A DNA stretch of 20,000 nucleotides from IMG/VR virus record IMGVR_UViG_3300025652_000051; one strand, 5' to 3'. Made by a program: the position numbers and the translations under genes. Positions 2,103 through 19,040 of this stretch are shown in pieces (position 1 is the stretch's first letter; each line of letters opens with the position of its first letter). The DNA is from an uncultured virus (IMG/VR IMGVR_UViG_3300025652_000051) (lineage: Duplodnaviria > Heunggongvirae > Uroviricota > Caudoviricetes). Below the pieces are notes generated by a model. That model had not been told where the DNA came from and did no database searches. It saw only the letters and a program-made list of their open reading frames with translations.

Positions 2103-2135
2103 GGCTAATCGTTTCGGCCTATAACGTCTTGAGTT

Positions 2136-2172
2136 GGCTAGATCAGGTCTTCGGATCTGATCTAGTTTTTTT
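2136..2172 (+). terminator. Rho-independent terminator with cUUCGg tetraloop
   Basis: Stem ggctagatcaggtc-TTCG-gatctgatctagtt followed by a T-tract (T7 at 2166-2172). UUCG-capped terminators are typical of T4-like phages. Confidence 0.9.
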
Positions 2173-2185
2173 ATACCTACACGGC

Positions 2186-2191
2186 TATAAT
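2186..2191 (+). promoter_or_regulatory. -10 box of a probable leaderless transcript opening the glycan cluster
   Basis: ggcTATAAT-6 nt-ATG(2198), directly after the terminator, no SD. Confidence 0.6.
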
Positions 2192-2197
2192 GATTCA

Positions 2198-3364
2198 ATG
2201 AATCGTAAGCTCAGAATTTTAGTGGTATACGCTAACCATGGAGGCTGTAGTTACTATCGTCAACTATCTCCAATGAAGATGATGGCAGAGGAATTGCATG
2301 ACAAGGTAGAAGTTAAAATTACTGACAACCCTTTAGAGATTGACCCTAAGAAGAATTACGCTCCTCCTAACGATAAGCTTGATGACATGAATTGGGCTGA
2401 TATTGTATTTGTAGCAAACATACTAAAGTTTGGAGGTCCTTACACTGCTCGCGTAATAGGTATTGCAAAGGAGCTTAAGAAGTTTGTTCACTTTGACACT
2501 GATGATTTGCTTACCGAGTTATACGAAGAGCATCATCTTTACGATACTTATAAAGAAAACAAGCTAGATGAGATTACTAAGTTTTGCTATTACAATGCCG
2601 ATTTAGTAACCGTCACTCAAATTAAATTTGCTGAGAGAATCAAGCCTCTCGTAGGTAAGTGTTTAGCTATCGTAAAGAATGTAATAGATTACACTCTCCC
2701 TGCTTGGAATCACCCTAAGACAAAGGCTAAGTTTACTCGCGTAGGATACGCAGCAGGCATTCACCATAGAGGAGACGTAAAGGTATTTAACTCTGTTCCT
2801 CATCTTGTAAACCAAAAGATAGGAAGAGAGAATGTTCAATGGAATTTCTACGGTCATCCTCCACCTGATCCCAATAAGGATAAGAATAGTTGGGAAGCTA
2901 AGGTCTGGCCTGAATACATGTCACAGCTTCTCAGCGGCTTCAAGGGGCAGAAAAACTATAACATACACTATGCTTTGCCTCCTGATATTTACGGTCGTTA
3001 CTACGCAGATATGGACGTTGCCATAGCTCCTTTACAGATGAATAATTTTAATGATTCCAAGTCTGATATTAAGGTTGCTGAGTGTTCACGCTACAAAATT
3101 CCCTTGGTAGCAAGCAATGTAGGATGCTACGATGAAAACATTATAAATGGCGAGACAGGATATTTGATTGATCCTGACGCTCCAAAGAGTGAGTGGGTTA
3201 AGATCCTTGGTAAGCTTTGTAAGGATAAGAAACATCGCATTGAGCTAGGTAAGAACCTCCATGATAAAACTAAAGATTTATTCGATGGCAGAAAGCAATC
3301 TCAACAAAGGTATGATCTTTACATGAGAGCTATTCAGGATTTAGGACATAAGATAGATGATTAA
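2198..3364 (+). CDS. GT-B glycosyltransferase (GT4-like)
   Basis: GGCSYYR, FDTDD, ADLVTVT and DVAIAPL...FNDSKSDIKVAE...PLVASNVGCY...GETGYL motifs. Start moved to ATG 2198 because the track start lies upstream of the terminator and would read through it. Confidence 0.82.
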   Translation: MNRKLRILVVYANHGGCSYYRQLSPMKMMAEELHDKVEVKITDNPLEIDPKKNYAPPNDKLDDMNWADIVFVANILKFGGPYTARVIGIAKELKKFVHFDTDDLLTELYEEHHLYDTYKENKLDEITKFCYYNADLVTVTQIKFAERIKPLVGKCLAIVKNVIDYTLPAWNHPKTKAKFTRVGYAAGIHHRGDVKVFNSVPHLVNQKIGRENVQWNFYGHPPPDPNKDKNSWEAKVWPEYMSQLLSGFKGQKNYNIHYALPPDIYGRYYADMDVAIAPLQMNNFNDSKSDIKVAECSRYKIPLVASNVGCYDENIINGETGYLIDPDAPKSEWVKILGKLCKDKKHRIELGKNLHDKTKDLFDGRKQSQQRYDLYMRAIQDLGHKIDD

Positions 3365-4067
3365 GACTTTCAAGCATAGCGGAGATTTAGGTGACATCAT
3401 TTACTCTCTGCCAACCATTAAAGCGTTGGGGGGCGGTGTGCTATACTTAGACCCTACAGGAGGTTCAAACGATCCATTGGTTTCATGGGGTAAGAGGGTT
3501 AATACCTCTTTAAATGAGGAGCTTATAGGAAGCTTAAAGCCTTTACTTGAACAGCAAGAATATATTAAAGAAATAAAACTTTGGGATAGCTCTGTAGGCG
3601 TTGACTACAATCTAAATGAGTTCAGAAATAATTTGACCAATAATTTGAGTGATTCTCACTTGAAGGCTTTCGGTCTTTCATCATCAAGAAGGGATGATAT
3701 TTGGCTTAGTATTGATGAGCCTTTATACCATAGTTCGGGCAGGAAGACTCTGATGGCTAGGTCCTTAAGGGTTCACTCTAATCACTCATTTTGGGAGACG
3801 CTACCAGATTCAACTATTGAAGACCTTGTATTTGTTGGTAGTAAATTTGAGTATGAAGTATTTTACAAAACCTTCAAATATGATATACCTTTTTGGGATT
3901 TGTCTATTTTGGACTTAGCTAGAGCGATAGCGTGTTGTAAGCTATTTATAAGTAATCAAACTTTTGGTTCTGCGATAGCGGAGGGCTTTAAAAAAGATTT
4001 AATACAAGAGGTTTACCGCTTGTGCCCCTTGGCAATTTTTCAAAGAGAAGGAGCTAGCTATGTATGA
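3357..4067 (+). CDS. GT9 (heptosyltransferase)-like glycosyltransferase
   Basis: HSGDLGDIIYSLPTIKAL N-terminal motif and SILDLARAIACCKLFISNQT...AIAEG C-terminal motif. Confidence 0.62.
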   Translation: MIKTFKHSGDLGDIIYSLPTIKALGGGVLYLDPTGGSNDPLVSWGKRVNTSLNEELIGSLKPLLEQQEYIKEIKLWDSSVGVDYNLNEFRNNLTNNLSDSHLKAFGLSSSRRDDIWLSIDEPLYHSSGRKTLMARSLRVHSNHSFWETLPDSTIEDLVFVGSKFEYEVFYKTFKYDIPFWDLSILDLARAIACCKLFISNQTFGSAIAEGFKKDLIQEVYRLCPLAIFQREGASYV

Positions 4068-4891
4068 GCGTAAAATTCGTATCTGATTTTCTTTTAGAAG
4101 ATTCTCCTGGAGGTGCGGAGCATGTTGATGATACTGTTATTACTGCGCTTGGACTCGAAGCGGTGAGGTCTAGGGACTTTACGCCAAACGAAGAAGACTT
4201 TTATATTATATCCAACATCTCTCTTCTCCCTCAGAGTAGCATTGATTACTTAGCAGCTAAGTGTAAGTACATCATACTGGAGCACGACTATAAGTTTCAC
4301 CCTACAAGGCACCCGTGGAGGTACCCTAACAACATAGTCGATTCTGGTGAGTTGATTAATCTCAGTCTATACGAGAATGCGATAATGACTTTCGTTCAGA
4401 CCGATGATCACTTAGAAGTATTCAAGCTAAACAATATTAAAGGTAATTTTGAAAGTTTGAATTGTAGCATTTGGTCTACTGAAGAGTTGGATAATCTCGT
4501 TGATCTTCATCGTTTGAGTAGATTGAAAGAAAGTTCTTTTGCGATTATTAATTCAGAAAACTGGATAAAGAATACAAAACAAGCAGTTGAGTTTTGTCAT
4601 AGCATGAAGATAACTTATGAATTAATTGAGAGTCAAGACTATAATATATTTCTAAGATCGTTGTCTAGATACTCCGCTCTTGTATTCTTCCCTATTGCTA
4701 GGGAAACCTGTTGTAGACTATTAGTAGAAGCAAAATGTCTGGGTTTAAATGTTATAACGTCTCAAAATTCTGGAGCATTTCAAGCAGATTGGTTTAGATT
4801 AAATGGGACTGATCTTATCAGCTATCTTAGAGAGCAGTCTTTGAAAAATTTGAGATCTATAGAAGGTTTATTAAATGAAAATAAAAATTAA
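4064..4891 (+). CDS. GT-B glycosyltransferase-like protein (GT4-like)
   Basis: GGAE near the N-terminus, EHDY, and LVFFPIARETCCRLLVEAKCLGLNVI (E-x7-E nucleotide-sugar motif). Confidence 0.65.
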   Translation: MSVKFVSDFLLEDSPGGAEHVDDTVITALGLEAVRSRDFTPNEEDFYIISNISLLPQSSIDYLAAKCKYIILEHDYKFHPTRHPWRYPNNIVDSGELINLSLYENAIMTFVQTDDHLEVFKLNNIKGNFESLNCSIWSTEELDNLVDLHRLSRLKESSFAIINSENWIKNTKQAVEFCHSMKITYELIESQDYNIFLRSLSRYSALVFFPIARETCCRLLVEAKCLGLNVITSQNSGAFQADWFRLNGTDLISYLREQSLKNLRSIEGLLNENKN

Positions 4892-5486
4892 AGATATGAA
4901 CATAGCTTATCTTACCTCTGAAAAATACCCTAAGAGGGACAAGGACACTAAAGAACTTTTACAGATTTCTAACTTAAGTTTTGAAAGGTATGATGGAGGG
5001 ATTACAACCCCTTATACAATTGGGGTTGCAAAAGGTCATCTTCAAGCTTTGAAGTCTTTATCACTTCCGTCTCTTCTATTGGAAGATGATATAAAAGTTT
5101 TAAATGGTTCTTCAATTGAAGTTGATCAAGAGTTTGAAGTTCCCGACGATGCTGATGCTTTATATTTAGGTACAAGCATGTATGGTCGGTTAGAGGGGAA
5201 AACCGTTCTTAACGGAGTCTTGGCAACGACCACTTCTAACCCTAGCGTCAACTCTGTGTATAACATGCTAAGTATGCACGCAATAGTTTACTTGTCCGAT
5301 AGATATAGAAATCATATTATGAATCTCTTGCAAATCCATATTGAAGATCCTACTGGAGGAGTTGATGATCCTATAGCCGAACACATGAGTGAATATAACG
5401 TATACGCAGTTGCTGATCCTGTATTTTATCAAGCTGACGGGCATAGTGAACAAGCGACAATGAATAGGATTCCTTTAAAGATATGA
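4875..5486 (+). CDS. GT-A glycosyltransferase (GT25-like)
   Basis: GVAKGHLQAL, LLLEDD, DALYLG, HAIVYLS, GVDD pattern typical of GT25/LOS transferases. Confidence 0.62.
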   Translation: MKIKIKDMNIAYLTSEKYPKRDKDTKELLQISNLSFERYDGGITTPYTIGVAKGHLQALKSLSLPSLLLEDDIKVLNGSSIEVDQEFEVPDDADALYLGTSMYGRLEGKTVLNGVLATTTSNPSVNSVYNMLSMHAIVYLSDRYRNHIMNLLQIHIEDPTGGVDDPIAEHMSEYNVYAVADPVFYQADGHSEQATMNRIPLKI

Positions 5487-6043
5487 AACTTTCAATATTA
5501 GTTCCAACGATGCCCACCAGGGTTGATTATTTAAAAAGATTAAAAAGATCTTTTAAAGGTCAATTAACTCCTGATGTAGAGTTAATAGTGTTTGAGGGGG
5601 ATGTTGGACAATCCATCGGTAGCAAGCGTAATAAACTTCTTGAGATGGCGAAGGGGGATTACATAGCTTTTGTGGATGATGATGATATTGTATCTCATCA
5701 CTACATCTCCAGAGTATTAAAAGCTATTGAATCGAATCCTGACGTTGTAGGTATCCACTTACTTCATTACGAAGACTATGGGTTAAGGGGTTTGACGTAT
5801 CATTCTCTTCGTTTCAAGGAATGGTCTGATGAGCCTAATCCTCAATATCCACAATTAAGAAATTACTATAGGAATCCAAACCATATTAATCCTGTAAGAA
5901 GAGAGTTAGCTATTCAAGTTAAGTTTCCAGAGATAAACATGGGAGAAGATAAAGATTACTCAATGCGTTTGAAGCCTTTATTGAGTAGCGAAGTTTATAT
6001 AAGCGATCCCATATACGCATATTTATTTAGGAGTATGAAATAA
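5483..6043 (+). CDS. GT2 glycosyltransferase
   Basis: LSILVPT...R, GSKRN...AKGDYIAFVDDDD, GEDKDY motifs. Confidence 0.88.
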   Translation: MKLSILVPTMPTRVDYLKRLKRSFKGQLTPDVELIVFEGDVGQSIGSKRNKLLEMAKGDYIAFVDDDDIVSHHYISRVLKAIESNPDVVGIHLLHYEDYGLRGLTYHSLRFKEWSDEPNPQYPQLRNYYRNPNHINPVRRELAIQVKFPEINMGEDKDYSMRLKPLLSSEVYISDPIYAYLFRSMK

Positions 6044-6582
6044 TGTCACACAAAGAAGAAAGAGACTTTTGCACTTCGGTTAAACACAAATTTCCGTATT
6101 CTTTTAAGGGTAAAAGAGTATTGGAAGTGGGTAGTGGAGATATAAATGGTAACAACAACTACTTATTTGAAGACTGTTGTTTAACCCGTGTAGATGTCTG
6201 TAAAGGACCTAACGTCGATATTGTATCCTACGCTCATGATTTAACTTTTGTTGACGATCTTTTTGATACAGTAATATCCACTGAGTGTTTTGAGCATGAC
6301 AAGCATTATGTTAAATCTTTACAAAACATGGTACGTATGCTTAGACCGGGTGGATTGCTTCTCTTTACTTGCGCGACAACTGGAAGACCTGAGCATGGCA
6401 CAAGTAGAAGTAAGCCTTGGCAAGTTCTTTCAACACGCATGGAAAACTCAGAAGATTACTACAAGAACCTAACTGAGCAAGATATTCGAGAAGTTATCGA
6501 TGTTGATAAAGTTTTCATAGAGCACGAATTTTCTGCTGAATTAAATCATTGCGATCTTTTCTTCTGGGGTATAAAGAAGTGA
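6043..6582 (+). CDS. Class I SAM-dependent methyltransferase
   Basis: VLEVGSG motif I, FDTVISTECFEH, LRPGGLLLF. Confidence 0.88.
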   Translation: MSHKEERDFCTSVKHKFPYSFKGKRVLEVGSGDINGNNNYLFEDCCLTRVDVCKGPNVDIVSYAHDLTFVDDLFDTVISTECFEHDKHYVKSLQNMVRMLRPGGLLLFTCATTGRPEHGTSRSKPWQVLSTRMENSEDYYKNLTEQDIREVIDVDKVFIEHEFSAELNHCDLFFWGIKK

Positions 6583-7529
6583 AGATTAATGTGATACCTG
6601 GGAGAGATCCTCACTATACTAGGTTAACTCAATCCCTACAGGCTTTAGGCCATGAAGTTCTTGTGGGTGAACCTGAGACTGGTGTTAAGTTTGACATGGC
6701 TTTTGTTAGTCCTAGTTACGACAAAGGTTACAATCAATCAGATAATATTCTATTCTTTGATGCTGAAGATGATCATAAGCATTTTGATCCTGGCGTAGCT
6801 TACCATGAGTTAAAAGATAAAGTAATCGCATACGCAAAAATGCATTACGTGGATGATGACAGAGGTGACGGAATTAAAAACGTGGCCTTCCCCATCATTC
6901 CCTACCTTACACATATACAAGCAGCATCGGTGCAGATACCTGATTTTTCTGCAAAAAATGCAGTGCCCTTTATGGCGGTAAGTCCGACGTTTATAGGTAA
7001 TTATAAGGGAACTGCACCGCGAGACCCTAGGTTCACCGCAGAGTTTGCCCCAGGGGATCTAATGTATAATCAAAGGTATCAATGGCTCTACAGCCTTGAA
7101 GAAAACAACATATTTTATCAAGGTGGTGTTGTTTTTTGGAAAGATAATGTCAGCTTTGAAGAACAAAGAAAATACTACGGCGACGTAATTAAAACATTTG
7201 AAGTGAGTAGGGTTGAAAATTATCTTGAAAAATTGGCATATTGTCGAATAGGTCTTTGCCCAACCGGCCACGATAGATTGAGTTGGAGAGTTTTTGATAT
7301 CATGGCAATGGGATCAATTTTAATATCAACTGACCGTCAAGATCAGAAGCATCTCTACAATCCAAAGGCTATTATAGAGATAAAGGATGATGAGGATTTG
7401 GGAATGACTTTGCACAAGTTGCAACCTGATTACAAAGAGATTTGGAAAGAACACAATGAGAACAGGAAGGTTCTTTCCCAGCTAACCCCGGACATCATCT
7501 GGAAAGATTTTAAGGAACAATTGATATGA
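6579..7529 (+). CDS. GT-B glycosyltransferase-like protein (exostosin/CgeB-like C-terminus)
   Basis: YLEKLAYCRIGLCPTG...SWRVFDIMAMGSILI motif. Start set at GTG 6579 (GTGA overlap with the upstream stop). Confidence 0.58.
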   Translation: MKINVIPGRDPHYTRLTQSLQALGHEVLVGEPETGVKFDMAFVSPSYDKGYNQSDNILFFDAEDDHKHFDPGVAYHELKDKVIAYAKMHYVDDDRGDGIKNVAFPIIPYLTHIQAASVQIPDFSAKNAVPFMAVSPTFIGNYKGTAPRDPRFTAEFAPGDLMYNQRYQWLYSLEENNIFYQGGVVFWKDNVSFEEQRKYYGDVIKTFEVSRVENYLEKLAYCRIGLCPTGHDRLSWRVFDIMAMGSILISTDRQDQKHLYNPKAIIEIKDDEDLGMTLHKLQPDYKEIWKEHNENRKVLSQLTPDIIWKDFKEQLI

Positions 7530-7531
7530 CC

Positions 7532-7537
7532 TATTAT
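7532..7537 (+). promoter_or_regulatory. Possible -10 box (leaderless-type)
   Basis: cTATTAT-8 nt-ATG(7546) in the largest gap inside the cluster, no SD. Confidence 0.35.
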
Positions 7538-7545
7538 TACCCACG

Positions 7546-8247
7546 ATGAAAAAACTATTACTAATTCAACCAGGGGCTTTTGGAGACATTATAGTGTGTG
7601 CTCCTATAGCAAAATGGTACGCGGACAGGGGGTATGAGGTGACTTACCCTGCGAGAGAGAAGTATCATTCTCTTCTTAATAAGTTGAGCTACATTAAACC
7701 AGTCATATTAAATGAAGATGAGTTAGACTCCGATTGGCTTCGCTCTGATGTCATGAAAATATTACCAGAGTGTAGTAATTATGATTTGATTATTAATTTA
7801 GCAGATAGGGGTCCACACTCCACTGCACAACGACCTTGGGAGAAGAATCAAGAAGCTAAGTATAGATTATCTCGTGTCCCTCGTGAAGAGCAGTATAATT
7901 TAGTATGGGATAGGGATATTGAAAAAGAGAATTTAATATATGATAAGTATGTAACTTCAACTCCTTATGCATTCGTTCACAATACTTCTTCCGATGGTGA
8001 AGATATTGATTTACCTGCTACCTCTCTACCAATAATTAAGAATGATACCCCCTTGGGCTATAATATATTTGATTGGTACAAGGTAATCTGCCAAGCTGAA
8101 GAGATCTACTGCACAGAAAGTGCTCTTCATTGCTTTTGCGACGGTATCTCTAAAGATATCACCAGTAAACGATTCTTGCTCTCAAGAGTGGCGGGTAACG
8201 GGCATCTACTGACTACTTCTAAATTTTGGGATAAAAGGTATTTATAG
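7546..8247 (+). CDS. GT9-like glycosyltransferase
   Basis: LLIQPGAFGDIIVCAPIAKWYADRGYEV N-terminal motif and IFDWYKVICQAEEIYCTESALH C-terminal motif. Confidence 0.62.
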   Translation: MKKLLLIQPGAFGDIIVCAPIAKWYADRGYEVTYPAREKYHSLLNKLSYIKPVILNEDELDSDWLRSDVMKILPECSNYDLIINLADRGPHSTAQRPWEKNQEAKYRLSRVPREEQYNLVWDRDIEKENLIYDKYVTSTPYAFVHNTSSDGEDIDLPATSLPIIKNDTPLGYNIFDWYKVICQAEEIYCTESALHCFCDGISKDITSKRFLLSRVAGNGHLLTTSKFWDKRYL

Positions 8248-8248
8248 T

Positions 8249-8632
8249 ATGGAGATTAAAATAACTATATCAGTTGGGGAACTTCTCGATAAAATTTCTA
8301 TATTAAAGATTAAATCAAGTAAATTCTCGTGTTCTAAAAAACTTGAATACGTCAATCGTGAGTTAAGTAAGTTGATTGATTGTGCTGAGACTCACGAGGT
8401 TTTTGATGAATCTTTACTTCATGAATTAGAGGATGTTAACAGGAGGTTGTGGGACATCGAAGATGAGATTAGGGTATTAGAAAAGTCTAAAGATTTCTCA
8501 GACAATTTTATTGAGTTAGCTCGGAAAGTATACATCACTAATGATAAAAGATTTATCCTAAAGTGCAACGCAGATGAGAAGTATGAGTCTATTATAAGGG
8601 AACAAAAGGATTATATAAATTACGATGGGTGA
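8249..8632 (+). CDS. DUF6165-like helical protein
   Basis: ISVGELLDKISILKIK...VNRRLWDIEDEIR...FIELARKVYITNDKR...EQKDY signature. Confidence 0.72.
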   Translation: MEIKITISVGELLDKISILKIKSSKFSCSKKLEYVNRELSKLIDCAETHEVFDESLLHELEDVNRRLWDIEDEIRVLEKSKDFSDNFIELARKVYITNDKRFILKCNADEKYESIIREQKDYINYDG

Positions 8633-9221
8633 TCTTCAACAACACAATCTTCAAAGTTTTATTCAAGACTATAACTGTAAACAGTTTGTAGAGACGGGAA
8701 CTGGTAAGGGGACAGGATTAAGTTACGCCTGCTCTTTCCCTTTTGAAAGCCTACACAGTATTGAGATAGTTCCTGAGCTTTACGAACACTGCGTTCAGGT
8801 TTTCAAATCTGATGAGAGAGTGTCCTTAATTCACGATAACTCTCTTGATGGGTTAAGGACCATTTTGAGTTCACTAAGTGATGATCCGACCTTCTTTTGG
8901 CTAGATGCACACTTCCCAGGAGCAGATTTTCATTTTAATGATTATGATCATATGAAAGATGAGAAACATCTGCATATGCCCTTAGTCGATGAGATAAAAC
9001 TAATACACTCTAGTAGACCTAACTGCGCTGATGTTTATATCATTGACGATCTTCACCTGTATGAGGATGGACCCTTTGAAATTCACATGCCTGAGTTTAT
9101 AGAAAAGTATGGAAACAAGAACATCACTCCCGCAACTGATCTTTTAAAAGACACTCATGTCTTTATTAGAGATCCTAGACATCAAGGTTTCTTGATATTA
9201 GTCCCTAAAAAAAATGGATAA
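8625..9221 (+). CDS. Class I SAM-dependent methyltransferase-like protein
   Basis: FVETGT.KG.G, SIEI, FFWLDAH, IIDD motifs. Confidence 0.68.
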   Translation: MGDLQQHNLQSFIQDYNCKQFVETGTGKGTGLSYACSFPFESLHSIEIVPELYEHCVQVFKSDERVSLIHDNSLDGLRTILSSLSDDPTFFWLDAHFPGADFHFNDYDHMKDEKHLHMPLVDEIKLIHSSRPNCADVYIIDDLHLYEDGPFEIHMPEFIEKYGNKNITPATDLLKDTHVFIRDPRHQGFLILVPKKNG

Positions 9222-9224
9222 AAA

Positions 9225-10049
9225 ATGGATAAACAAATAAAAATTAAGCATTTAGCAGACTACCACAATTGGGAACGTGTAAATGATTGTATTCCTAAAG
9301 GCGTTTACGCAGGGGCTTTACCCTTCGAGGATGGTTATGTGGCCGCTTGTAGGGTTGGTAACGTAGGCTTTGAAGATAAAATTCATGCGGTGACTTATGA
9401 CTCAAATTTAAATTTATTAACCTCAGAAGAGGTTTGTAAAGGCGAGGATCCTAGGGGCTTTCTATTAAATGAAATTCCTTTTGCTCTTTTCTGGTCTCCA
9501 AGACTCGCTTCTCGATTTGCTGATTTCCCGATGTCCTACAGTCTTGTTAACCTTAAGACTAAGCAGGTTGTAGATCTTTCCATAGACGGTGTGAAAGAAA
9601 CTCGAATGGAGGTTCTAGGTAAAAATTGGATGCCTCTGGTTAAAGACGGTGAGTTGTTTATAGTTGTTTCGATAGAGCCTAGAATTTGTGTTTTAAAGGT
9701 AAATGTAGACAACGGTATTTGTAATTGGTTAGAGGGCTTTGCTCCTGTAGGTAACATAGAAGTTACACATAGTAGAGGAGGAACTCCGTTTGTTTATAAT
9801 GAAACTCTTGAAAGGTATGTTGGATTTGGGCATAGGACATACTCTACTACTCATCATAACATATATTTTTACACCATAAGTAAAGACTTTGATGATGTTT
9901 ATATCGGCCCCGATATTAATACGGGTAAGGGTTGCGTGCAGGATCCTATGTCTATTTTTACGAAAAATGGTAAGACTTTCTTTACCGTTGGTCGATGGAA
10001 TTTCCCTAACGAAGGTGAAATGGGTATTTACGAACTAATTATTGATTAA
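9225..10049 (+). CDS. Beta-propeller glycosidase/phosphorylase-like protein (GH130/GH43-like)
   Basis: GEDPR, KNWMP, RGGTP, QDP motifs, beta-rich repeats. Confidence 0.55.
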   Translation: MDKQIKIKHLADYHNWERVNDCIPKGVYAGALPFEDGYVAACRVGNVGFEDKIHAVTYDSNLNLLTSEEVCKGEDPRGFLLNEIPFALFWSPRLASRFADFPMSYSLVNLKTKQVVDLSIDGVKETRMEVLGKNWMPLVKDGELFIVVSIEPRICVLKVNVDNGICNWLEGFAPVGNIEVTHSRGGTPFVYNETLERYVGFGHRTYSTTHHNIYFYTISKDFDDVYIGPDINTGKGCVQDPMSIFTKNGKTFFTVGRWNFPNEGEMGIYELIID

Positions 10050-10050
10050 A

Positions 10051-11010
10051 ATGAAGACTATATTAATTTGTGGCGGAGCGGGATTTATAGGTCATCACCT
10101 TGCTCGTAAGTTGAAGTCTGAGGGTCATTATGTGGTTGTGGCTGATATAAAGACTCGTAATGAATACTGCGAGGATAATGAATACTGCCATCAGTATTTA
10201 CAGTTGGACCTGTGTAAGGATGATAGTTGGGCTGCTATCCATGATCAGTTTAAGGAGTTTGATGAGGTATACCAACTAGCAGCCGACATGGGAGGAGCGG
10301 GTTATATCTTTACGGGGGATAATGATGCAAACGTAATGACTAACTCGTCATTAGTAAACTTGCATTGTGTTCAGTTTGCTACTAAATGGAAGGCTAAGGT
10401 GTTCTACTCCAGTTCTGCTTGCATGTACCCCAGCCACAATCAGGAAGATCCAAATAATCCTAATTGTAAAGAAGACTCTGCATACCCCGCTAACCCAGAT
10501 TCGGAGTATGGGTGGGAGAAGTTATTCAGCGAGAGACTTTATCTTGCTGCGGCTAGGAACTATGGCCTAGATGTTAGAGTAGCTAGGTTCCATAACATCT
10601 TTGGTCCTGAAGGAATTTATGACGGGGGTAAGGAGAAAGCTCCTGCTGCTTTGTGTCGTAAGGTTGCTAAGTCTGAAGGCAGTATTGAAGTGTGGGGTCC
10701 AGGAACTCAGACTCGCTCCTTCCTCTTCATTGATGAGTGCATAGAGGCAGTTCAAAGATTAATGGAATCAGATTTTAAAGATCCAGTAAATATAGGTTCC
10801 GATGAGATGATATCAATTAATGATCTTGCTAAAATGGTTATTGAAATATCAGGTAAAAGGTGTATTATTAACAACATCGAAGGCCCTTTAGGTGTGATGG
10901 GTAGGAATTCAGACAATGAGCTTATTCAAGATAAGCTTGGATGGTCTCCCTCCATGCCCCTTCGAGACGGTATTCAGAAAACATACGAATGGATTAGTAA
11001 TGAACTTTAA
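10051..11010 (+). CDS. GDP-mannose 3,5-epimerase-like NAD-dependent epimerase
   Basis: GGAGFIG, QLAADMGGAGYI, SSACMYP, YGWEK, RFHNIFGP, GGKEKAPAALCRK, VMGRNSDN, all diagnostic of the GME subfamily. ATG 10051 follows the upstream stop at 10049. Confidence 0.88.
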   Translation: MKTILICGGAGFIGHHLARKLKSEGHYVVVADIKTRNEYCEDNEYCHQYLQLDLCKDDSWAAIHDQFKEFDEVYQLAADMGGAGYIFTGDNDANVMTNSSLVNLHCVQFATKWKAKVFYSSSACMYPSHNQEDPNNPNCKEDSAYPANPDSEYGWEKLFSERLYLAAARNYGLDVRVARFHNIFGPEGIYDGGKEKAPAALCRKVAKSEGSIEVWGPGTQTRSFLFIDECIEAVQRLMESDFKDPVNIGSDEMISINDLAKMVIEISGKRCIINNIEGPLGVMGRNSDNELIQDKLGWSPSMPLRDGIQKTYEWISNEL

Positions 11011-14339: not shown

Positions 14340-15726
14340 AAAACCCAACAGTATTAAAGCTTACTCATCTGAATTAAACTCTATTATTCACGTTAGAAGA
14401 CTTACTGAAAAGCAATTAGAAAAGGTATATAACAAGCTTAAGAAGTTTATAAAAACTTCTGAATCTGGTAAGTTTAATTTCGTAAGCTATGTTAAGATAG
14501 TTATAGTTGATTGCTTAACACCTTCCGAACAGAAGACGTTTATTGCTAGAGTAGCTGAGGTTCAGGATTTAAAGGATAGTATTAGTGATCCATTGTTGGA
14601 ATATAAGCTATTAGGGGCTTACTACCAGACGATCTCTGAATACTATCCCGAGTTTAGAATTGAGCATGTTTGTTACGACATAAACGAGCTTATTCCTGAT
14701 TCTGTTATATTAGATTCTATTATTAGGGACGCGAAGCAGGATCCTGAATTCCAGAAGAAGATAGAGGAGAATTTACCTAAGCCTAAACCTAAACAAAAGC
14801 CTTCACCTCCTACGAACAAGTATAATCTAAAGACCATAGAAGATATTAATAACTTGGATAAGTTCTTGAAAAAGAACATTGTGGGCCAAGACGAGGCGAT
14901 ACAAACCGTATGCAACTCTATAAAGTTAAGAGCCGCTAAGTTTAGTAGCCATGTTAATCTATTCTTCATCGGAAAGACTGGTAGAGGTAAGACTCAACTT
15001 GCTAGAAAGCTTGGAGAGAAGTTTTCTCCTAACTTTTGGGTTATTAACTGTGCTGAGTTTACAAATGGACATGAGGTATCTAAAATCCTAGGCTCTCCTC
15101 CAGGTTACATAGGGCATTCTGAGTCTTCAATAATGAAGGAAAAGGCCGAGAAGTCTAACAGGTGGACGATTGTTTTTGATGAGATTGAGAAAGCACACTC
15201 GAAATTCTTTAATATACTTTTGAGTCTTTTGGACACTGGTACAGTTACCGATAATTCAGGCAATGAAATAGACTTTACAGATTCTATGTTTGTTATGACC
15301 TCTAACTGTGGATTGAAAGACTTGAAAACTAATCTACTTGGATTTGGGGGATCTGCCACTGCCGATGGTCACAAAGAGGAAATCATGAAGTCTTTGGAAA
15401 GAGAGTTCTCTCCTGAGTTCAGAGGTAGAATAGATGACTTTGTGTTCTTTAATGACCTTAACGATTCTAACATTAAGGATATTGCTAAGATGACCCTCGC
15501 TAAGTATCCTGTGAAGTCTACTCCTGAGTTGCTAAATCATATAGTTAGCAAAGGTTATAGCGATGAGTTTGGTGCTAGAGATATTCAAAGGGTCGTTAAA
15601 AATCTAGTTGCACTGCCGCTTGCCGATGAGATATTGTCTAACCGCCATCCTGATGATGGTTCTAGCAAGTATGAAGCTGCTGTTGTGGAAGATAAAGTAG
15701 AGATAATTAACACTATCCCGCTTTAG
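14332..15726 (+). CDS. Single-module Clp/Hsp100 AAA+ ATPase (ClpA/B/C D2-type) with an unrecognised N-terminal domain
   Basis: IVGQDEAI, Walker A GKTGRGKT, pore loop GSPPGYIG, Walker B VFDEIEKAH, TSN, LGF loop, FSPEFRGRID, GAR sensor 2. Confidence 0.88.
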   Translation: MPRKPNSIKAYSSELNSIIHVRRLTEKQLEKVYNKLKKFIKTSESGKFNFVSYVKIVIVDCLTPSEQKTFIARVAEVQDLKDSISDPLLEYKLLGAYYQTISEYYPEFRIEHVCYDINELIPDSVILDSIIRDAKQDPEFQKKIEENLPKPKPKQKPSPPTNKYNLKTIEDINNLDKFLKKNIVGQDEAIQTVCNSIKLRAAKFSSHVNLFFIGKTGRGKTQLARKLGEKFSPNFWVINCAEFTNGHEVSKILGSPPGYIGHSESSIMKEKAEKSNRWTIVFDEIEKAHSKFFNILLSLLDTGTVTDNSGNEIDFTDSMFVMTSNCGLKDLKTNLLGFGGSATADGHKEEIMKSLEREFSPEFRGRIDDFVFFNDLNDSNIKDIAKMTLAKYPVKSTPELLNHIVSKGYSDEFGARDIQRVVKNLVALPLADEILSNRHPDDGSSKYEAAVVEDKVEIINTIPL

Positions 15727-15751
15727 GTGTTGTTTTCATCGGAACATGCGC

Positions 15752-15757
15752 TATGAT
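15752..15757 (+). promoter_or_regulatory. -10 box, leaderless-type
   Basis: gcTATGAT-6 nt-ATG(15764), TTGTTT 16 nt upstream. Confidence 0.5.
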
Positions 15758-17173: not shown

Positions 17174-17375
17174 AGATGAATTTCTAGATACTGCCGTCAG
17201 CCAGTCTTTAAAGAAGTATCGTAGCATATCTCCCTGGCCGTATATGGCAGAGTTTGTACCGGGAACTATGCTAGACTTTGAATCTTACAATTCTTTTGAT
17301 GTACTGTCTTTTGAATTGATGGCTATATCCGCTAGGAAAAAATATGGTTTCACCGACGAATCTAGTAAAGATTGA
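17166..17375 (+). CDS. Hypothetical protein
   Basis: Overlaps the sigma stop, AAGGG upstream. Confidence 0.55.
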   Translation: MTRDEFLDTAVSQSLKKYRSISPWPYMAEFVPGTMLDFESYNSFDVLSFELMAISARKKYGFTDESSKD

Positions 17376-18072
17376 GGAGTATCTTGAGCATCTATTTGAT
17401 GTTCACGATATTGATATTGGAAAAACTACTGACCTACCAGTGGCTGAGTCCATAGACAAGCTAATTAGTTTAGTTTGCAAACGATTCAACCTCAACGTAG
17501 TGTCCAAGGATGGAACTACTAGAATAGTTCTTAAGTCTCCTAGGTCTAAGACCGTTATCAAGATAGGTATGCCTTGGAACAATCAACCTGAATACTCACT
17601 TTACAAGGCTCTAGAGCATTCTTCATTGGGTGATCTGTTTGCTGAGTGTATACAGATCAGCCCCAAGGGTTATGTTCTAGAGATGGAGTATATAAGTAAG
17701 CCTTTTCCCTCTGCAAAAGGGGATTATCATTGGGTCAATCCTTCTTTAAATAAGATTAGGAATGAATTAGAGAAGCACTTCTCATTTATTAAGGGTTATA
17801 ACACTTACAATTGGGGTGCAGACTTTCATGAAGATAACATGAGGATGGATTCCTTCGGGGACATAAAGCTTGTTGATTACAGTAGTTTACTGTCAGACAT
17901 GTTCTTTAGACGTAAATCCACCACCGTAAAGTCTGCTATTAAAGGAGTTCTCAAGTTAGACTTTCCAAAGGTTAAGTTAAACTTGTATTGCAGAGACAGA
18001 GTTATATACTACACCAACAATACGAAGCTAATGAAGGCTGACATAGACTATGTATCTAAGGAGTCTTATTAG
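17344..18072 (+). CDS. Protein-kinase-like fold enzyme (atypical Ser/Thr kinase or small-molecule kinase)
   Basis: GTTRIV P-loop, VIK lysine, NQPE helix-C Glu, LEMEYI hinge, DFHEDN catalytic loop, LVDYS metal-binding loop. Confidence 0.7.
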   Translation: MVSPTNLVKIEEYLEHLFDVHDIDIGKTTDLPVAESIDKLISLVCKRFNLNVVSKDGTTRIVLKSPRSKTVIKIGMPWNNQPEYSLYKALEHSSLGDLFAECIQISPKGYVLEMEYISKPFPSAKGDYHWVNPSLNKIRNELEKHFSFIKGYNTYNWGADFHEDNMRMDSFGDIKLVDYSSLLSDMFFRRKSTTVKSAIKGVLKLDFPKVKLNLYCRDRVIYYTNNTKLMKADIDYVSKESY

Positions 18073-18087
18073 GTGTAGTATCCGTAT

Positions 18088-18164
18088 GGCGCATTAACTC
18101 AGTTGGTTAGAGTGCGGGTCTTATATGCCTGAAGTCGTTGGTTCAAGTCCAACATGCGCTACCA
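18088..18164 (+). tRNA. tRNA-Ile(UAU)
   Basis: Acceptor GGCGCAT/ATGCGCT, D arm ACTC/GAGT, anticodon arm CGGGT-CT TAT AT-GCCTG, T arm GTTGG-TTCAAGT-CCAAC, A73, encoded CCA. Confidence 0.92.
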
Positions 18165-18266
18165 AGCAGTATAGTAATAAAGGTAAAATACTCCCATATG
18201 CACCGTCAGCGGCCTAATACCTTAGAGCAGGGAGAGATACTGGTTCAAGTCCAGTTACTGCTACCA
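18165..18266 (+). ncRNA. tRNA-like RNA with a 34-nt structured insert in place of the anticodon loop
   Basis: Perfect acceptor AGCAGTA/TACTGCT, U8-A9, D-loop GG, stem CTCCC/GGGAG, T arm ACTGG-TTCAAGT-CCAGT, ACCA end. The loop at 18196-18229 is 34 nt instead of 7. Confidence 0.8.
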
Positions 18267-18281
18267 TTTTATTCAAACTAG

Positions 18282-18289
18282 TATAAATA
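18282..18289 (+). promoter_or_regulatory. T4-type late promoter consensus
   Basis: Exact TATAAATA in an intergenic gap, 13 nt before ATG 18303. Confidence 0.5.
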
Positions 18290-18302
18290 GATAAAAGAAA
18301 TC

Positions 18303-18434
18303 ATGTTTATGAATATTGCAAGACAGATGGGAGATCCTAATTTTTATGAAAAATTTGGTTATGCAGTTGCTGTGGGATCTCTCTGTCTTTTATTTCAACT
18401 GTATTGTGTTTATCTGATGACAAGGGGTCTATAA
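18303..18434 (+). CDS. 43-aa single-pass membrane protein (absent from the ORF track)
   Basis: MFMNIARQMGDPNFYEKFGYAVAVGSLCLLFQLYCVYLMTRGL*. TAATG coupling to the next ORF. Confidence 0.6.
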   Translation: MFMNIARQMGDPNFYEKFGYAVAVGSLCLLFQLYCVYLMTRGL

Positions 18435-18964: not shown

Positions 18965-19040
18965 GGTCCGGTAGCCCAAGGGCAGAGGCAACAGACTTAA
19001 AATCTGTACAGTGTGGGTTCGAATCCCACTCGGACTACCA
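18965..19040 (+). tRNA. tRNA-Leu(UAA), short variable loop
   Basis: Acceptor GGTCCGG/TCGGACT, D stem GCC/GGC, anticodon arm ACAGA-CT TAA AA-TCTGT, 5-nt variable loop, T arm GTGGG-TTCGAAT-CCCAC, ACCA. Confidence 0.92.

Follow-up and report, generated by a model that had tools for sequence, protein, structure and literature searches.

What an otherwise complete tRNA gene does when it lacks an anticodon loop is the question raised by a locus in the window, by which we mean the whole 20,000-nt stretch of uncultured marine phage DNA that was analysed. The gene occupies positions 18165–18266 of the plus strand and specifies a predicted tRNA-shaped RNA of 102 nt, including the terminal ACCA. Its first base is the base right after the CCA of a tRNA-Ile(UAU) gene. 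Since the last base of the tRNA-Ile directly abuts the element, the two probably share one precursor.

A tRNA-shaped RNA gene with an exchanged anticodon loop

The original prediction, made from the sequence alone, listed a 7/7 acceptor stem, 5/5 pairs in the T and anticodon stems, the GG of the D loop and an encoded ACCA, and all of these are present in the sequence (Table 1). Where a normal tRNA has an anticodon loop of 7 nt, the element holds 34 nt (18196–18229). In the minimum-free-energy fold, these form an ATA bulge, a short TGC/GCA helix (P1) and two hairpins (H1 and H2), which equals the folded module that had been claimed. The energy of the single-sequence fold is −24.1 kcal/mol (z = −1.07), and 29 of 200 shuffled sequences were equally stable. 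The fold energy is therefore not below that of shuffles and alone proves nothing; support for the structure comes from comparison.

Table 1. Coordinates of the tRNA-shaped RNA gene, its parts and its conserved upstream neighbours in the window
Feature	Position	Strand	Support
Conserved upstream 242-aa protein, no known family	17344..18072	+	homologues in G002, G003, G004
tRNA-Ile(UAU) with encoded CCA	18088..18164	+	ARAGORN; Rfam 65.3 bits
Whole tRNA-shaped RNA gene	18165..18266	+	RF00005 40.2 bits; model R1 119 bits; 14 distinct family sequences
Acceptor stem, 5′ strand (pairs with 18256–18262)	18165..18171	+	7/7 pairs
Positions 8–9 and D arm, GG in D loop	18172..18190	+	Rfam alignment; D stem 2/4 pairs here
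Anticodon stem, 5′ strand (pairs with 18230–18234)	18191..18195	+	5/5 pairs
ATA bulge or hinge between anticodon stem and module	18196..18198	+	all 4 alignment columns variable
Conserved module (P1, A18202, H1, C18213, H2, A18226)	18199..18229	+	conservation; RNAalifold
Basal helix P1 (TGC/GCA)	18199–18201 with 18227–18229	+	
Hairpin H1, CCG-TCAG-CGG	18203–18212	+	
Hairpin H2, CTAA-TACC-TTAG	18214–18225	+	
Anticodon stem, 3′ strand (18230–18234), then 4-nt variable region (18235–18238)	18230..18238	+	Rfam alignment
T arm ACTGG / TTCAAGT / CCAGT (stems 18239–18243, 18251–18255)	18239..18255	+	5/5 pairs
Acceptor stem, 3′ strand, discriminator A18263, encoded CCA	18256..18266	+	sequence

ARAGORN and Rfam with default filters listed the same two tRNAs in the window, the tRNA-Ile and a tRNA-Leu at 18965–19040, and both missed the element. 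A permissive Rfam scan of 18100–18330 assigned 18165–18263 to RF00005 (tRNA) with 40.2 bits and an E-value of 1.8e-7. The gathering cut-off of this family is 29 bits, which the element passes under permissive filters only. A check with tRNA finders and Rfam, as had been proposed, was thus negative with ARAGORN and with default Rfam settings and positive with the permissive scan, and genes of this kind are missed by standard tRNA finders and default Rfam filters. The check for another known RNA family came out as anticipated: besides tRNA, no Rfam family was assigned to the element in the permissive scan (E ≤ 10), the rest being weak, chance-level matches to unrelated families. On neither strand does an open reading frame of at least 50 aa overlap the element.

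The element recurs in uncultured marine phages

The family comprises 14 distinct sequences on uncultured marine phage contigs. They fall into about five diverged lineages: the window type (with L137 and L139), L152, a type made up of L144, L145, L150 and L154, L155, and L141. A search pattern for the core of the insert matched 7 IMG/VR contigs and had no match in 185,579 prokaryote species, each represented by one genome. With a pattern for the 3′ half of the element, the same 7 viral contigs were recovered, and none of its four matches in the species genomes fitted R1, a covariance model built from the 14 sequences. Metagenomes were scanned with the 3′ end of the neighbouring tRNA-Ile as anchor, a search that is blind to the element itself. 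Fourteen loci were returned, overlapping in part with the IMG/VR contig set, and 13 of them contain the element. In 11 of the 14, a version of it starts 0–3 nt after the tRNA-Ile; in L137 and L139 a gene intervenes, and the element is found about 500 nt further downstream. The remaining locus, L142 (1.4 kb), has other tRNAs after the tRNA-Ile and no element. Every record carries one copy. The original prediction had suggested looking for homologues with a normal loop: none of the 14 sequences has a 7-nt loop and all of them carry the insert.

Further searches did not enlarge the family. When the window element and the elements of L141 and L150 were compared by blastn with 50,697 phage records, only partial matches to the T arm and acceptor stem were obtained, and no homologue was found in cultured phages. 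A generic T-arm pattern returned ordinary tRNAs and att-like sites only. With a tRNA-body pattern that leaves the loop free at 7–37 nt, three contigs already known and L134 were found, and with a loop-specified pattern the three known contigs only. L134 holds no tRNA and was rejected as a chance match. L129 contains no tRNA, and neither does L122, a contig that carries a relative of the upstream gene (61% identity) and stops 200 nt past it. In the open-access literature that was searched, we found no description of an anticodon-less, tRNA-shaped family. As far as sequence comparison can tell, the elements appear to form a previously undescribed RNA family that is carried by one group of uncultured marine bacteriophages.

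The tRNA stems covary and the module stems are invariant

Realignment of the 14 sequences to R1 gave an alignment, A6, in which 99.7% of the 378 cells of the proposed structure are paired, a value to be read with A6 being fitted to the model structure and so favouring it. Compensatory changes were observed in 10 of the 28 pairs. Shuffled alignments had a mean of 4.2 such pairs and in none of 500 shuffles was the number of 10 reached; controls in which the structure was slid gave 1–3. The compensatory pairs are spread over the acceptor stem (4/7), the anticodon stem (2/5, the other three pairs being invariant C-G), the T stem (3/5) and P1 (1/3). In P1, a G-C pair is replaced by A-U in L141 (TAC/GTA) and a C-G pair by U-G in L155 (TGT/GCA). 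RNAalifold, run independently, returned the same helices with 26 pairs. G-U wobbles occur in five pairs, and U-G wobbles are found in the T stem of five sequences; such wobbles show selection at the level of the plus-strand RNA.

The two hairpins of the module behave differently from the tRNA stems. No column is variable in the stem of H1 (0/6) or H2 (0/6), compared with 8 of 14 in the acceptor stem, 6 of 10 in the T stem and 4 of 10 in the anticodon stem. The H1 stem CCG/CGG and the H2 stem CUAA/UUAG are identical in all 14 sequences. Their loops vary: that of H1 is UCAG, UCAA or UCAUA, and that of H2 has four to six variable letters and ends with CC. The region of the ATA bulge varies in sequence and in length (3–4 nt). 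Over the family, the module measures 27–31 nt and the whole loop 34–38 nt. Covariation within the insert, which had been proposed as a check, is therefore found for P1 and not for H1 and H2. As their stems are invariant, the pairing of the two hairpins is a thermodynamic prediction. Invariance of these 7–8 pairs could partly reflect the sampling of about five lineages.

Among the 15 pairs of lineage representatives, identity in the module is at least as high as in the tRNA body in 14, the exception being L155 and L141 (0.74 in the module, 0.78 in the body). L152 has a different acceptor sequence, no GG in the D loop and TGCAACT as T loop, and keeps the module. Because the module is more conserved than the body and is kept in L152 despite the changes around it, it is the constrained part of the RNA, with the tRNA body acting as its frame. 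That the module stems stay invariant while the tRNA stems drift and compensate points to sequence-specific recognition of H1 and H2, as judged from these alignments. The original prediction of a non-decoding tRNA mimic that serves as scaffold for a folded domain fits these data, in which every sequence keeps the insert and both the tRNA helices and P1 covary. The candidate functions named there were a decoy for anticodon nucleases or for sensors of uncharged tRNA and the display of an aptamer-like domain.

Two details of that prediction have to be changed. The weak D stem exists in the window lineage and in L152 only, the other lineages having D stems of four pairs; it is a property of these two lineages and not of the family. 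A GCA repeat with a spacing of 27 nt had been pointed out together with the removal of 27 nt that restores a 7-nt loop. This repeat is a by-product of the TGC/GCA helix and indicates neither a splice site nor the border of a duplication: L141 and L155 alter it and the pairing is retained. Its interpretation as a target-site duplication was likewise dropped, the repeat being lost in these two lineages.

A tRNA pseudogene in decay that had gained its insertion by chance, or a tRNA-like sequence that arose by chance, could be proposed on account of the weak D stem in the window lineage and of a fold no better than that of shuffles. Conservation with compensatory changes over about five lineages, together with the invariant stems of the insert, speaks against decay, as the original prediction had argued from the perfect stems. 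Close relatives of the window add to this. L001 differs from the window in a single base of the element, T18189 to C, which converts G10-U25 of the D stem to G10-C25. L127 and L128 encode a nearby 464-aa protein that is 91% identical to that of the window, and the spacers on both sides of the element have diverged, while the element itself has two changes among its 102 positions, none of them in the 34-nt insert. One of the two changes is again T18189C; the other, an A to G, turns a T-stem pair into a U-G wobble. We regard a pseudogene or a chance sequence as extremely unlikely.

Several other structural readings of the module were examined and discarded. On reading the sequences we saw neither a hammerhead nor the core of any other small ribozyme. 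A kink-turn would need G-A pairs after the bulge, and there are none. Pairing of the H2 loop with another loop or with the D loop was inconsistent among lineages and geometrically remote. Apart from these discarded readings, the element could in principle mimic a host CRISPR repeat, as an RNA anti-CRISPR would; the comparison covered Rfam, in which no CRISPR-DR family was matched up to E 10, and the 185,579 species genomes, which lack the module core.

Splicing and decoding

The same RNA would be expected if the gene encoded an intron-bearing tRNA precursor, from which the module of 27–31 nt is excised before the halves are ligated to a decoding tRNA of about 75 nt. In favour of this, the insert occupies precisely the place of the anticodon loop in a tRNA that is complete in all else and passes the Rfam cut-off, and 27–31 nt is a typical size of protein-spliced tRNA introns. 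Extra sequence in the anticodon loop is common to the element and to the intron-bearing tRNAs, both the archaeal and eukaryal ones with a bulge-helix-bulge motif and the bacterial ones with group I introns. We tried all single contiguous excisions that leave a 7-nt loop, and in none of the 14 sequences (0/14) did one yield U33 together with a purine at position 37, which bears out the earlier remark that a spliced loop would be poor for decoding. The element has a single bulge of 3–4 nt, which lies in the 5′ strand beside the anticodon stem. As had been noticed, this is the wrong strand for a bulge-helix-bulge motif; a partner bulge is absent as well.

The host is bacterial. This assignment follows from the relative G002 (102.7 kb, 87% complete), whose tRNA-Tyr of 88 nt, encoded among 15 ordinary tRNAs, is too long for a tRNA with a short variable arm; bacterial tRNA-Tyr belongs to the class with a long variable arm. 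In the three relatives G002–G004, no splicing endonuclease (tRNA_int_endo, PF01974), RtcB (PF01139) or Rnl2-type RNA ligase (PF09414) was detected, and neither was a CCA-adding enzyme family; the control genomes were positive for each. The corresponding search of the relatives for the T4 Rnl1 family (PF09511) was uninformative because its control also gave nothing. Moreover, the insert is more conserved than the putative exons, which is the opposite of ordinary tRNA introns. A group I intron would require a ribozyme core of about 200 nt or more, for which an insert of 27–31 nt is far too small, and no Rfam intron family was matched up to E 10. Beyond the position of the insert, nothing favours splicing, and we consider it very unlikely.

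Aminoacylation and known tRNA-like RNAs

An RNA without an anticodon could still be aminoacylated, and could then act as a non-ribosomal amino-acid donor or, like tmRNA, enter the ribosome with the aid of a helper protein. The acceptor stem, the discriminator A73 and the T arm are intact, CCA is encoded in 12 of the 14 sequences, and some synthetases ignore the anticodon, namely AlaRS, SerRS and bacterial LeuRS. On the other hand, two of the about five lineages have lost the CCA (L141 has TCA, L155 has TTA), and the elbow is degraded in L152, with its altered D and T loops. Pair 3:70 is C-G in 14 of 14 sequences and not G-U, so that the alanine identity of tmRNA is absent. The element shares with the tRNA-like domain of tmRNA that it is a mimic without anticodon; a tag reading frame is missing, and no tmRNA is listed by ARAGORN or by the permissive Rfam scan, in agreement with the original prediction. 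Altogether, aminoacylation seems unlikely.

With canonical tRNA (RF00005), the element shares the acceptor, D, anticodon and T stems, the T loop, the discriminator and the CCA. It differs in that the 7-nt loop, the U33/purine-37 context and the anticodon are missing. Y RNAs of the YrlA type are also tRNA mimics without an anticodon. In YrlA, the RNA ends form a Ro-binding helix opposite the tRNA-like part; in the element, they form the acceptor stem. No match to RF02553 was obtained, and a TROVE/Ro gene was not detected in G002–G004, with positive control genomes.

Closer in setting are the small stable RNAs of T4 and T5. The rnaC and rnaD genes of T4 (NC_000866) are annotated beside the T4 tRNAs, just as the element adjoins a tRNA-Ile, and rnaC has a T arm like the element. 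According to a review, RNAC and RNAD have unknown roles (PMC3014915). RNA1 (144 nt) and RNA2 (125 nt) of T5 carry the label ‘tRNA-like stable RNA with unknown functions’ in NC_005859. In their folds, an over-long arm takes the anticodon position beside the acceptor, D and T arms, comparable to the element. RNA1 reaches 24 bits on RF00005 and stays under the cut-off that the element exceeds with its 40.2 bits. More generally, the T4 and T5 RNAs are 119–144 nt long and lie below the tRNA cut-off, whereas members of the element family are complete type-I tRNAs above this cut-off, in which only the 7-nt loop has been exchanged, its place being taken by the compact, invariant pair of hairpins. Model R1 gives 21.2 bits for rnaC and at most 9.6 bits for RNA1 and RNA2. 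As these scores are no better than those of ordinary tRNAs, the T4 and T5 RNAs are, by this measure, analogues and not relatives of the element family.

A laboratory design provides another parallel. In the engineered tRNA scaffold, a foreign module replaces the anticodon loop, and the tRNA-processing enzymes of the cell mature and stabilise the RNA. By analogy, the element family would be its natural counterpart and could serve as a natural model for tRNA-scaffolded RNA tools.

A proposed role for the module

We propose that the element encodes a non-decoding small RNA that uses the tRNA shape as a frame and whose working, probably protein-binding surface is the invariant module. On the evidence of the sequences compared, we assign this reading a probability of roughly 60%. 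Without an anticodon loop, the RNA cannot read codons. It also does not look like simply one more decoder of a tRNA cluster, because in G002 it stands alone, on the strand opposite to 15 clustered tRNAs. The element would be transcribed together with the upstream genes and the tRNA-Ile. A cut by RNase P at the 3′ end of the tRNA-Ile would free the 5′ end of the element, and the 3′ end would be trimmed back to the encoded CCA. The tRNA body would thus provide a frame for processing and stability, and the two-hairpin module of 27–31 nt in place of the anticodon loop would be the working part. Recognition of this module would depend on its sequence, and the partner would most likely be a protein, encoded by either the host or the phage. 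A more specific guess is that the RNA binds a factor that normally handles tRNAs and blocks or redirects it.

Invariance could also be explained by base pairing. The RNA would then be a regulator in which the invariant CCUUAGAG (or CCGUCA) is the seed for a host or phage RNA and the frame gives stability. An invariant run of 8 nt is present in 14 of 14 sequences, and stems that open to pair in trans would likewise keep their sequence. On the other side, the run lies mostly within predicted helices (the 3′ strand of H2 and P1), and its intramolecular partner CUAA is equally invariant. We identified no target, and the 185,579 species genomes searched lack the module core. A base-pairing regulator is therefore in our view improbable.

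The protein-binding reading can be carried one step further to anti-defence or takeover of the host. The frame might lure a host factor that inspects tRNAs or attacks them, such as an immune nuclease directed at the anticodon, and the module in place of the target loop would bind this factor tightly as a non-substrate. Seen in this way, the element might belong to a wide and so far unrecognised group of phage RNAs that share a tRNA frame and carry exchangeable working ends, the T4 and T5 RNAs included. We offer this extension as a speculation that is doubtful, though worth stating. If it is true, the tRNA-like stable RNAs of T4 and T5 would at last have a function. Whatever its role, the element is a cleaner case than these RNAs, since a complete tRNA has only its anticodon loop swapped for a short, near-invariant module. 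Invariance of the module marks the candidate working surface, and the RNA, already on a tRNA frame, has a handle for pull-downs. The identity of the partner would show what role such RNAs have in infection.

Genomic context of the element

The window is phage DNA with a GC content of about 39%. Its identified genes, which all lie on the plus strand, include those for a gp32-type SSB, a RecA/UvsX-like recombinase, MazG, an ATPase/protease and several glycosyltransferases. By megablast, the whole window had no match in phage records, and no protein in the 50,697 records exceeds 36% identity to its recombinase. The four lineages for which flanking sequence was read share one gene order, in which a sigma-like protein (about 200 aa) and a small protein precede a protein of 231–242 aa and then the element, with or without the tRNA-Ile. 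In G003 and G004, a protein of 84–93 aa and a membrane peptide of 41 aa follow the element. The window keeps only the peptide downstream, as an open reading frame of 43 aa with a hydrophobic stretch (18303–18434). No Pfam family was assigned to these conserved neighbours.

The element could also be a t-element acting in cis, that is, a tRNA-like fold that recruits RNase P or RNase Z to cut a polycistron and thereby defines the end of the downstream mRNA. In the printed sequences of L137, L144, L145, L150 and L154, an ATG is found 6 nt past the CCA (an open reading frame starting at an ATG after the CCA is listed for G004 only), and directly upstream of the element in the window there is no promoter-like site. 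A role in cis leaves unexplained that the module is more conserved than the frame, and the neighbouring ordinary tRNAs could do the same job. We therefore rate a t-element as quite improbable compared with a module that acts as a binding surface.

The 242-aa protein encoded upstream of the tRNA-Ile was seen in the four lineages whose upstream flank was read, and we treat it as context only. Its identity between the window and G002 is 36%. No match was obtained in Pfam, in PHROG or among PDB sequences, and the AlphaFold model, with a mean pLDDT of 50.6, was too poor for a fold search. A weak lead came from the Atlas, where Phage_T7_kinase is assigned to 13% of one cluster. The invariant residues begin with a Lys in a strand and a Glu in the helix after it, followed by D-F-H-x-x-N-M and then D-Y-S. 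They may recall a minimal protein-kinase-like fold, a weakly supported reading.

The element of G002 (L158) lies at 15647–15754 on the minus strand, within a block of minus-strand genes, and about 5.6 kb from a cluster of 15 tRNAs that includes Leu(UAG) and Leu(UAA) and is encoded on the opposite strand. The T loop of this element is TGCAACT and its D loop has no GG, so that both usual partners of the elbow contact are changed; the module is intact. Within the tRNA cluster, ARAGORN reports a ‘tRNA-???’ with a two-letter anticodon at 5530–5601, which scores 29.7 bits on RF00005, just above the cut-off.

In G004 (L160), the region 14786–15254 upstream of the element begins with a tRNA-Ile-like 5′ part, whose first 26 letters match the tRNA-Ile of the window with one change. 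An open reading frame with a weak Pfam HNH match follows at 14844–15203 (20.4 bits, cut-off 21.4), and the region closes with a T-arm-like piece that ends in ACCA. No intact tRNA was reported in this region by ARAGORN or Rfam. It appears that the tRNA-Ile gene was disrupted or displaced here by an HNH gene. In G003 (L159), the stretch between tRNA-Ile and element (about 6850–7720) contains overlapping low-complexity open reading frames rich in Gly, Ser, Arg and Trp and looks like a tandem DNA repeat. Elsewhere in the window, positions 2129–11010 encode three glycosyltransferase-family genes, a SAM-dependent methyltransferase and a nucleotide-sugar epimerase, which together look like a phage sugar-modification cluster.
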